DNA of 64,000 nt from Herpetosiphon aurantiacus DSM 785 (GTDB taxonomy: Bacteria; Chloroflexota; Chloroflexia; Chloroflexales; Herpetosiphonaceae), in assembly GCA_000018565.1 (NCBI GenBank), contig CP000875.1, positions 313,199 to 377,198 of the forward strand. The letters are read 5' to 3'. The notes beneath the pieces were generated by a model, which was not told the origin of the DNA, searched no databases, and saw only the letters and a list, made by a program, of their open reading frames with translations. Below, piece after piece: positions 41,042 through 42,474 of the stretch. How positions within the stretch are numbered: position 1 is the stretch's first letter; each line of letters opens with the position of its first letter. The translations under genes and the position numbers were made by a program.

Positions 41042-41055
41042 TGAGACCGCTCCCA
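41042..41055. promoter_or_regulatory. CelR-like LacI operator half-palindrome box (TGAGACCGCTCCCA)
   Basis: It matches 12 of 14 positions of the T. fusca CelR box TGGGAGCGCTCCCA. It lies upstream of GH9. Confidence 0.4.
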
Positions 41056-41117
41056 ATGCCATGAAATCAAGCGCTTGCTGCGAGGCTAGGAGAGAGGAGA
41101 GTGATGCAGTAGTGGAA

Positions 41118-41131
41118 TGAGATCGCTCCCA
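41118..41131. promoter_or_regulatory. CelR-like box (TGAGATCGCTCCCA; rc TGGGAGCGATCTCA)
   Basis: It shares the same motif as 42461-42474. Confidence 0.45.
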
Positions 41132-41275
41132 AGCACAGTTTGTTATGAAAGTAAAAATATCCTAAATGATTCATTGCGACTTGTCAAGCGTAAATTTTAA
41201 AAAGTTTTTAGATTTGGATTTAGGCTCTTCTGAAGCGCTAAAAAGCTACTACATACCTATTAAGAGAGCTAGAGC

Positions 41276-41325
41276 GTGTTTTCAGAAAACACCTGCTTGA
41301 CAAAATACATAAGATCTTTTATTCT
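41276..41325 (+). promoter_or_regulatory. Palindrome GTGTTTTC-a-GAAAACAC followed by promoter TTGACA-N17-TATTCT for the LacI gene
   Basis: It has a perfect 8-bp-arm inverted repeat that abuts a consensus -35. Confidence 0.4.
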
Positions 41326-41385
41326 CTCCCTAAGACTTCTGAGACCGGTTCCAAAGTAATTTAAATCAGTTTGTGGGGTTTCGCC

Positions 41386-42408
41386 GTGGAACAACTCACG
41401 ATTCGCCAAATAGCCCAACTTGCCAATGTTTCACGCTCGACCGTTTCGCGGGTAATCAACAATCATCCCAGCGTGCGGCCCGAAGTGCGACAACGGGTGT
41501 TGGAAGTTATTCGCGAACAAGACTATGTTCCGCAGGCAGCCGCTCGTAGTCTGGCAAGCCGCCGAACCAATGTGGTGACCCTGTTGATCCCACGCAGCTC
41601 GGCAATTATCTTCACTGACCCATTCTTCCCATTAATCATCCAAGGAATTACCGAAACCTGTTCTGAGCGGGATTATTCGGTGATGCTTTCGATGGTGACT
41701 GGCACCCAAGAACGGGATTTCTATCAGCGGGTATTACGCAGTCGGATGACCGACGGTCTGTTGATGCTTTCGAGCGATATTGATGACCCAGTGTTACCCT
41801 TGCTGATTAACGACCAAATGCCGTTGGTCTTAATCGGCGAACACCCGTATATGCAGCCAATGTATACCGTTGACGTGGCAAATCGGGCCGGGGCAGTGCT
41901 AGCAGTCAGCCATTTATTGCAACTTGGCCATCGACGGATTGGGGCGATTACAGGCCTACTGCAGATGAAAACCGCCATTGATCGCCGTGACGGCTATAAG
42001 CAAGCGTTATTGCAAGCAGGCGTTGCCATCGAGCATTCGTTGATGATCGAGGGCGAATTTACCCAAGAGGGTGGCTATGCTGCAATGCGCCAATTGCTCA
42101 GCCTTGAACAGCGACCAAGCGCTGTCTTTGTGGCCAGCGACACCATGGCATTAGGAGCCTTACGGGCTATTTACGAGGCCGGGTTACATGCTCCCCACGA
42201 TATTTCGCTGATCGGCTTTGATGATGTGCCAGGCGCGGCCTATACAACCCCCGCCCTGACGACGATTCACCAACCAATTCAGAAGCTTGGTAGTACCGCC
42301 GCCACGATGTTGCTTGACCATCTCGAAGGGCGACCACCGCTCCAGCAACACATCCGTCTCTCACCTTCGTTAGTCTTACGCCAATCGTGCGGGCCACGGG
42401 TCGCCTAA
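41386..42408 (+). CDS. LacI-family transcriptional regulator (CelR-like)
   Basis: It has an HTH (LTIRQIAQLANVSRSTVSRVINNH) and a periplasmic-binding-fold sugar domain. The start is either GTG at 41386 or TTG at 41371. Confidence 0.8.
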   Translation: MEQLTIRQIAQLANVSRSTVSRVINNHPSVRPEVRQRVLEVIREQDYVPQAAARSLASRRTNVVTLLIPRSSAIIFTDPFFPLIIQGITETCSERDYSVMLSMVTGTQERDFYQRVLRSRMTDGLLMLSSDIDDPVLPLLINDQMPLVLIGEHPYMQPMYTVDVANRAGAVLAVSHLLQLGHRRIGAITGLLQMKTAIDRRDGYKQALLQAGVAIEHSLMIEGEFTQEGGYAAMRQLLSLEQRPSAVFVASDTMALGALRAIYEAGLHAPHDISLIGFDDVPGAAYTTPALTTIHQPIQKLGSTAATMLLDHLEGRPPLQQHIRLSPSLVLRQSCGPRVA

Positions 42409-42460
42409 ACAGCACCCACGGATTCACTAGATCGCATGGTCTGTCGAACACGGGAGTTTT

Positions 42461-42474
42461 TGGGAGCGATCCCA
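42461..42474. promoter_or_regulatory. Palindromic CelR-type operator TGGGAGCGATCCCA upstream of ABC transporter
   Basis: It matches 13 of 14 positions of the T. fusca CelR consensus. It is 62 nt upstream of the SBP start. Confidence 0.55.

Follow-up and report, generated by a model that had tools for sequence, protein, structure and literature searches.

The repressors CebR and CelR of actinobacteria bind the 14-bp site TGGGAGCGCTCCCA and are released from it by cellobiose (PMC4358012, PMC3377646). Functional sites of this type have also been documented inside genes, across a set of studies taken together (PMC3538285, PMC4358012, PMC3377646), and Anderson et al. (2012) found a CelR-type site at the ABC (ATP-binding cassette) transporter in all but one of the organisms using the site, and at cellulases only sometimes (PMC3377646). 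Here, we examined copies of this site around Haur_0297, a LacI-family regulator of Herpetosiphon aurantiacus DSM 785, which belongs to the Chloroflexota and to a genus reported as an abundant cellulose degrader in soil (PMC8545098). The analysis covered a window of 64 kb (64,000 nt; CP000875.1, forward-strand positions 313,199 to 377,198) and 21-kb loci from other genomes; coordinates refer to the window unless a locus is named.

The Haur_0297 regulon is already catalogued, as an ordinary LacI-type sugar circuit. Haur_0297 (A9B7H6_HERA2) is listed in RegPrecise regulog 4804, 'Caur_1157', assigned to beta-glucoside utilisation in Chloroflexi (Ravcheev et al. 2014, PMC4052901). This regulog comprises three regulons and seven predicted sites, with Cagg_1685 and Chy400_1181 as co-members, and the same authors kept Caur_1157 and CelR(3), which includes, for example, SCO2794, as separate orthologous groups (PMC4052901). 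The N-terminal sequence given by RegPrecise, MEQLTIRQIAQLANVSRSTVSRVINNHP..., agrees with the window protein over the part displayed, placing the protein in Caur_1157, and Haur_0297 is 45% identical to Cagg_1685.

We then located the CelR/CebR-like boxes in the window. Five were found, and we consider it probable that they are operators of Haur_0297, acting as a LacI-family repressor of the glycoside hydrolase operon GH9(-GH48-GH8), of its own gene, and of an operon encoding an ABC transporter and a GH116 enzyme. The boxes, with their scores against the weight matrix described below, are as follows:

Box 1, 41042-41055, minus strand: TGAGACCGCTCCCA, reading TGGGAGCGGTCTCA on the GH9 strand; matrix score 19.6
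Box 2, 41118-41131, minus strand: TGAGATCGCTCCCA, reading TGGGAGCGATCTCA on the GH9 strand; matrix score 17.6
Weak box, 41340-41353, plus strand: TGAGACCGGTTCCA, past the lacI promoter and before the lacI start; matrix score 15.6, rank 4
Box 3, 42461-42474, plus strand: TGGGAGCGATCCCA, 13/14 against the consensus; matrix score 27.1
Intragenic box, 42619-42632, plus strand: TGAGACCGCTCCCA, the same letters as box 1, inside the binding-protein gene; matrix score 14.2

An earlier note on this DNA had reported boxes 1 to 3 and a separate palindrome, likened the boxes to the CelR operator, and placed them at the control regions of GH9 and the ABC transporter. Reading the sequence directly reproduced each of these coordinates, the gene calls agree with the placement, and the likeness to the CelR/CebR operator is borne out by the counts that follow; the weak and intragenic boxes were absent from that note. 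In descending order of agreement, the five boxes match TGGGAGCGCTCCCA at 13, 12, 12, 12, and 10 of 14 positions, and all keep the frame T-G...C-G...C-A of a palindromic LacI/GalR-type operator (~14-20 bp, central CG). With up to two mismatches allowed, the window holds four sites against 0.30 expected, a number reached in none of 300 dinucleotide shuffles; with up to one, it holds one against 0.007 expected. At up to three mismatches there are seven sites against 3.1 expected, and three of 100 shuffles reach seven, an excess that is weak and unconvincing taken alone. A 20-bp weight matrix (consensus TTTTGGGAGCGCTCCCAAAA) built from 37 sites, all from other Chloroflexota genera, gave the local boxes the five highest scores of the whole window, the sixth score being only 11.1. 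Box 3, flanked by a palindromic TTT/AAA pair, is the strongest of the predicted sites. Boxes 1 and 2 lie 76 bp apart, and box 3 and the intragenic box 158 bp apart (~15 helical turns), centre to centre in both cases. The intragenic box spans codons 28-33 of the binding-protein gene, directly after the lipoprotein-type signal peptide, and may serve as an auxiliary operator or may have arisen by coincidence in coding sequence, its status being uncertain.

Next, conservation was examined in H. aurantiacus and five other species-level genomes (four named Herpetosiphon and one metagenome-assembled genome [MAG] labelled only Chloroflexia). Four boxes are kept letter for letter in all five of the other genomes. 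Boxes 1 and 2 form invariant islands between diverged flanks in the GH9-lacI spacer, and the weak box is likewise invariant in the six-species intergenic alignment. Box 3 is invariant too, yet its entire intergenic region is ~95% conserved. In the intragenic box, the four synonymous positions do not vary across the six species while neighbouring codons do, in a sample too small for significance. The locus in Ca. Anthektikosiphon (L016), whose regulator is 76% identical to Haur_0297, has a pair of boxes ahead of GH9 and single ones at lacI and ahead of GH8; it includes a positional counterpart of box 1 and lacks the intragenic box.

To follow the pairing of regulator and box beyond the genus, we used a profile search of genome contigs with an alignment of Chloroflexota homologues, which returned 52 loci, H. 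aurantiacus itself not being among them. Twenty-five of these loci represent Chloroflexota outside the genus, from Herpetosiphonaceae, Chloroflexaceae, Oscillochloris, Kouleothrix, MAGs labelled Anaerolineae, and unclassified MAGs, and 17 of them have a box with at most one mismatch upstream of the lacI orthologue. The 400-bp stretches preceding these genes in the 25 loci (10 kb in total) contain 25 such boxes, against five in the other 371 kb, a 185-fold enrichment. Preferred positions relative to the lacI start are -14 to -27, where the other Chloroflexota have a strong box, and ~-175 to -235. Perfect 14/14 copies of TGGGAGCGCTCCCA occur at orthologous loci L017, L020, L022-L024, L026, L032, L033, L036, and L039, and no box was found, even at two mismatches, in 21 non-Chloroflexota control loci with unrelated LacI genes (397 kb). 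The pairing of Haur_0297 with the box is thus well supported by comparative evidence, and the LacI gene that the earlier note had taken as the cognate regulator very probably is so, given the co-occurrence of box and gene across Chloroflexota and the footprint-like islands. We also note that three loci outside the genus (L023, 10630-10643; L033, 8513-8526; L034, 4713-4726) have a good box (TGGGATCGCTCCCA/G) within the lacI coding sequence, at +629 to +635 relative to its start, and that the Haur_0297 gene has no box at the matching position.

We then determined the organization of the locus from Pfam domains and stored gene calls. The two divergent promoters were predicted as sigma-70 consensus matches, and transcription starts were deduced from them. 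The features are as follows:

32033-33568, minus strand: GH8 (Pfam and gene calls)
33652-35481, minus strand: GH8-CBM2 glucanase, possibly third in the GH9 operon (Pfam and gene calls)
35647-38211, minus strand: CBM2-GH48 cellobiohydrolase, probably co-transcribed with GH9 (Pfam and gene calls)
38387-40927, minus strand: GH9-CBM3-CBM2 processive-type endoglucanase (Pfam; start from the gene call and the ribosome-binding site GGAGT)
41187-41159, minus strand: predicted GH9 promoter, TTGACA-17-TAGGAT, 10/12 consensus positions
41297-41325, plus strand: predicted lacI promoter, TTGACA-17-TATTCT, 10/12 consensus positions
41386-42408, plus strand: Haur_0297, predicted LacI-family repressor of 340 aa with a GTG start (Pfam LacI and Peripla_BP_3; exact gene call)
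42536-43996, plus strand: extracellular solute-binding protein (SBP_bac_1) of a sugar ABC importer (Pfam)
44075-45052 and 45064-45957, plus strand: two ABC permeases (Pfam and gene calls)
46082-48406, plus strand: GH116 beta-glucosidase, final gene of the transporter operon (Pfam)

Downstream of boxes 1 and 2, GH9 comes first. Its promoter is identical in the six Herpetosiphon species, and so is the lacI promoter, save for single-species substitutions in the spacer and -10 hexamer. Box 2 lies 191 nt upstream of the GH9 ATG, at ~+22 to +35 of a predicted transcript with a leader of ~225 nt, and box 1 lies 115 nt upstream, at ~+98. The weak box, a candidate autoregulatory operator of lacI judging from its position, covers ~+9 to +22 of the predicted lacI transcript, and box 3 ends 62 nt before the binding-protein ATG at 42536. 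Positions downstream of conserved sigma-70-like promoters would suit a repressor that acts by occupancy or as a roadblock. Between box 2 and the variable spacer, an A+T-rich block of ~95 bp (41132-41225) is nearly invariant in the six species, which is more than the GH9 promoter hexamers alone demand; it may hold an UP element or a site for another factor.

No convincing promoter or T-tailed terminator was found between GH9, GH48, and GH8-CBM2, and the 175-bp GH9-GH48 gap contains no box, sigma-70-type promoter, or T-tailed terminator on the minus strand. A terminator-like hairpin with a 12-bp stem and T tail (33592-33621, minus strand) separates the two tandem GH8 paralogues, so the last GH8 gene (32033-33568) may be a separate transcription unit outside the box-controlled operon. 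Each GH8 paralogue also holds one copy of GTGAGATCGGTCACATTG (35325-35338 and 33412-33425; matrix scores 3.4-3.9), most likely as duplicated coding sequence. Neither Pfam nor the gene calls revealed an ABC ATPase gene in the transporter cluster, and NCBIfam gave nothing above curated cut-offs for the regulator, binding protein, and permeases. GH48 matches the entry 'glycoside hydrolase family 48 [Herpetosiphon aurantiacus DSM 785]' at 100% identity. Downstream of GH116, a small gene (48503-49003, minus strand; gene call in locus L001, 17118-17576; 152 aa) with a Pfam Ribosomal_L12 match stands alone, away from ribosomal operons.

From this arrangement we can postulate how the circuit would work. 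When cello-oligosaccharide is lacking, the repressor dimer would occupy the two operators in the long GH9 5' leader (~+22 and ~+98) and block transcription of GH9, probably also of GH48 and GH8-CBM2. Repressor on box 3 would shut off the ABC importer and the GH116 beta-glucosidase, and repressor on the weak operator just past its own promoter would give autoregulation. Cellobiose or a short cellodextrin, once imported, would bind and release the repressor, and GH116 would then destroy the inducer. One repressor and one box gating both the GH9-GH48-GH8 operon and cellodextrin uptake would offer a simple handle by which to predict or engineer cellulase expression.

Several observations weigh against this interpretation. 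Each Herpetosiphon box has one degenerate half-site, TGAGAY for TGGGAG. GH48, GH8-CBM2, GH8, and GH116 have no boxes of their own (best matrix score there 8.3), so the regulon membership of GH48, GH8, and GH116 rests on assumed co-transcription. The stretch from lacI to the binding-protein gene yielded no sigma-70-type promoter, and we considered that box 3 may act either as an internal roadblock or on an unrecognised promoter. From the sequence we infer that Haur_0297 binds the boxes, that it represses and does not activate, and what its inducer is, a cellobiose-type effector of Haur_0297 being suggested by analogy and by the genes under control. Finally, H. aurantiacus has 12 LacI-family regulators, and the site could be shared among them.

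We next compared the regulator with characterized proteins. Haur_0297 has the LacI/GalR helix-turn-helix and sugar-binding core (PF00356, E = 7e-17; PF13377, E = 3e-42; PF00532) and aligns full-length with PurR structures (E = 1.5e-62). It scores 210 bits (37% identity) against Streptomyces CebR SCO2794 and 208 bits against the Protein Data Bank (PDB) 5ysz chain; E. coli PurR, at 215 bits, stands above both. The 5ysz entry is labelled only 'LacI family', and we take it to be T. fusca CelR. In plasmid and chromosome records, Streptomyces, Ralstonia, PurR, and RbsR proteins come equally close to Haur_0297, at 38-40% identity. Among 1.84 billion cluster representatives (50% identity), at least 150 clusters scored 218-403 bits, all above CebR/CelR, and every named member among ten top clusters is from Chloroflexota, another H. 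aurantiacus paralogue included. Orthologues with 57-64% identity and a source name are likewise all from Chloroflexota (Herpetosiphonaceae, Chloroflexales, and MAGs labelled Anaerolineae), and most of their loci carry the same box. By similarity scores, as by the separate RegPrecise groups, Haur_0297 does not qualify as an orthologue of T. fusca CelR or SCO2794, though a deep sister relationship between the Chloroflexota group and CelR/CebR is possible. The recognition helix reads VSRSTVSRVIN in Haur_0297 and VGRGTVSRVIN in SCO2794 and the 5ysz chain, and after the hinge all three proteins have five inserted residues that are missing from PurR and CcpA. As helices of the R-x-TVSR type occur frequently in the nearest relatives, the shared operator may reflect a widespread helix class and not a recent common origin.

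Alternative explanations of the boxes were then weighed. Chance matches to a G+C-rich palindrome would account for the unimpressive excess at three mismatches, but for neither the shuffles at up to two mismatches, nor the top five matrix ranks, nor the invariant footprints, nor the 185-fold enrichment at orthologous loci; the conservation data already refute this explanation, and we give it practically no credence. The boxes might instead be real operators bound mainly by another LacI paralogue with the same helix, or jointly by several. In favor of such sharing, besides the number of LacI-family regulators in H. aurantiacus, the helix type recurs among 150 representatives of the nearest relatives (RS-R in 17, RA-R in 17, and RT-R in 3), and some loci, such as L037, have a second related lacI with boxes of its own. 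However, the box tightly adjoins orthologues of precisely Haur_0297 over many genera, and the helix differs, reading VSIATVSRV, in the nearest named paralogue of H. aurantiacus (45% identical), which leaves control by a paralogue unlikely. In L037 itself, the second lacI paralogue (7742-8815) is convergent, 56% identical, and preceded by two boxes (8878-8980), while a GH6 cellulase follows the first lacI, suggesting duplicated regulators with one operator type.

Two further proposals had been made in the earlier note, concerning the origin of the locus and the palindrome, and neither held. According to one, an actinobacterial-type CelR regulon in a Chloroflexi genome would suggest cross-phylum transfer of the cellulases together with their regulator; on this reading, cellulases, transporter, and regulator with its operators would all have arrived at once from an actinobacterium such as Thermobifida. 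In its favor, actinobacterial CelR/CebR have an identical box consensus, the GH48 catalytic domain shows 61-68% identity to enzymes of Streptomyces and Streptosporangiaceae, GH9 reaches 64.5% identity with a Nonomuraea enzyme, and in Nonomuraea a GH48-GH9 pair lies side by side behind a perfect box. Against this stand the regulator, no closer to SCO2794 or 5ysz than to PurR, and with higher scores against clusters whose named members are from Chloroflexota; the binding protein, whose closest match in PLSDB is from Thermus at 38% identity and not from an actinobacterium; the even GC content, flat over the locus; and GH9 and GH48 themselves, equally close to other Chloroflexota and to Actinobacteria. 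Whole-module transfer is rejected for the regulator and transporter by these similarity ranks and the Thermus best match, and we regard it as highly improbable overall; regulator, box, and transporter are, judged by sequence similarity, native to Chloroflexota. According to the other proposal, GTGTTTTCaGAAAACAC (41276-41292) is a second regulator's site acting on the lacI promoter. The palindrome, GTGTTTTCAGAAAACAC, is a perfect 8+1+8 repeat ending 4 nt before the TTGACA at 41297, and it is present only in contigs encoding an identical regulator (nine contigs), presumably of the same species. However, it falls where the intergenic region, conserved elsewhere, varies most, and none of the five other Herpetosiphon species in the intergenic alignment has it. 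There is no second copy in the window, where about one perfect palindrome with 8-nt arms is expected by chance per spacer length (64000 x 4^-8), and matches with up to three mismatches are present in 32 of 100 shuffles. An Rfam search of 40800-42700 for RNA elements, covering the long GH9 leader and the intergenic regions, returned only a U7 match on the palindrome, below threshold and attributable to chance. A role as a second operator was rejected for want of conservation among Herpetosiphon species, and we hold it to be very unlikely.

The history of the cellulases may differ from that of the regulator. The GH48 catalytic domain is 67-78% identical to those of other Chloroflexota and 61-68% to those of Actinobacteria and Myxococcota; GH9 is 80% identical to its counterpart in L016, 59-65% to those of other Chloroflexota, and 64.5% to that of Nonomuraea. 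Of the components compared, GH9 and GH48 alone are unusually similar across phyla, and an identity of ~65% for these secreted enzymes, against 37% for the regulator, is compatible with an old exchange of cellulases between phyla and not with arrival of a module in Herpetosiphon. Since both enzymes are equally close to other Chloroflexota, any such transfer would be old and not specific to H. aurantiacus. In the Nonomuraea gerenzanensis record NZ_LT559118.1 (an 11.85-Mb chromosome filed as 'plasmid' in PLSDB; locus L063, 14-5775), the longest reading frame of GH48 begins with a perfect TGGGAGCGCTCCCA (15-28), GH9 follows GH48 in an overlapping frame, the opposite order to the Herpetosiphon gene pair, and a second perfect box lies at 7759.

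It is conceivable, though we think it rather unlikely, that the shared operator of two distant LacI regulators eased cross-phylum exchange of box-carrying cellulase genes. If so, a cellulase gene moving with its upstream box would come at once under the correct cellobiose control in its new host. Such compatibility would help to explain the ~65% cross-phylum identity of GH9 and GH48, the GH48-GH9 pairs behind boxes in both Nonomuraea and Herpetosiphon, and the restriction of box-controlled cellulases to Herpetosiphonaceae among the Chloroflexota loci examined. Alternatively, the shared box could be ancestral, kept from an old cellobiose regulon of Terrabacteria, or the product of simple convergence within the common R-x-TVSR helix type.

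Examining the neighbours of the lacI orthologues across Chloroflexota, we found sugar-binding proteins and permeases, together with hydrolases of families GH1, GH2, GH3, GH6, GH116, GH9, and GH48. The hydrolases beside the lacI orthologue are distributed as follows:

GH1: L017
GH3 and GH2: L024, L026, L039
GH6: L037
GH116: L020, L021, L035, L036, L040
GH9 and/or GH48: L017, L023, L033, L035

Outside Herpetosiphonaceae, none of the cellulase genes in the Chloroflexota loci examined has a box of its own. The core of the regulon would thus be the unit of regulator, transporter, and glucosidase, with direct control of cellulases as a lineage-specific extension. The classic 'actinobacterial' CelR/CebR box is not phylum-specific and appears to be the standard operator of a widespread Chloroflexota regulator family, so its presence in a genome or metagenome is no evidence of actinobacterial origin.

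Collectively, these data place the Haur_0297 circuit beside three described systems. Relative to the Caur_1157 regulog, for which Ravcheev et al. covered five Chloroflexi genomes, we found the box in ~25 further loci, including MAGs labelled Anaerolineae. What the present analysis adds is that the box is spread widely across Chloroflexota, that it equals the CelR/CebR consensus although the proteins are only weakly similar, that there are two more boxes (41340-41353 and 42619-42632), and that the transfer and palindrome ideas are rejected. The circuit resembles CelR/CebR in having a LacI-family repressor with a recognition helix of the form R-x-TVSRVIN and an identical 14-bp consensus, TGGGAGCGCTCCCA, present at the target genes, where binding is predicted. 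The regulator gene adjoins a sugar ABC importer without its own ATPase and a beta-glucosidase, boxes precede secreted cellulases (GH9 and GH48) as well as the importer operon with its beta-glucosidase, and intragenic boxes are likewise known in CelR/CebR systems, as with cbs in txtB and the box in an A. mirum polyketide synthase gene. It differs in the 37% identity of the regulators and their separate orthologous groups in Ravcheev et al., in having a GH116 rather than a GH1 beta-glucosidase, in the position of lacI upstream of and co-directional with the transporter genes, and in the one degenerate half-site of the Herpetosiphon boxes. Furthermore, the Herpetosiphon cellulases are clustered in one operon, whereas those of Streptomyces are scattered, each behind its own box. 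Among the CelR-like variants of Anderson et al. (2012, PMC3377646), the TGAGAGCGCTCTCA half-site of Catenulispora and Thermobispora resembles TGAGAY, though the Herpetosiphon boxes belong to another phylum and to regulators that are not demonstrably orthologous. The pattern seen by those authors, with sites regularly at the transporter and only sometimes at cellulases, recurs in Chloroflexota, where boxes at cellulases occur only in Herpetosiphonaceae.

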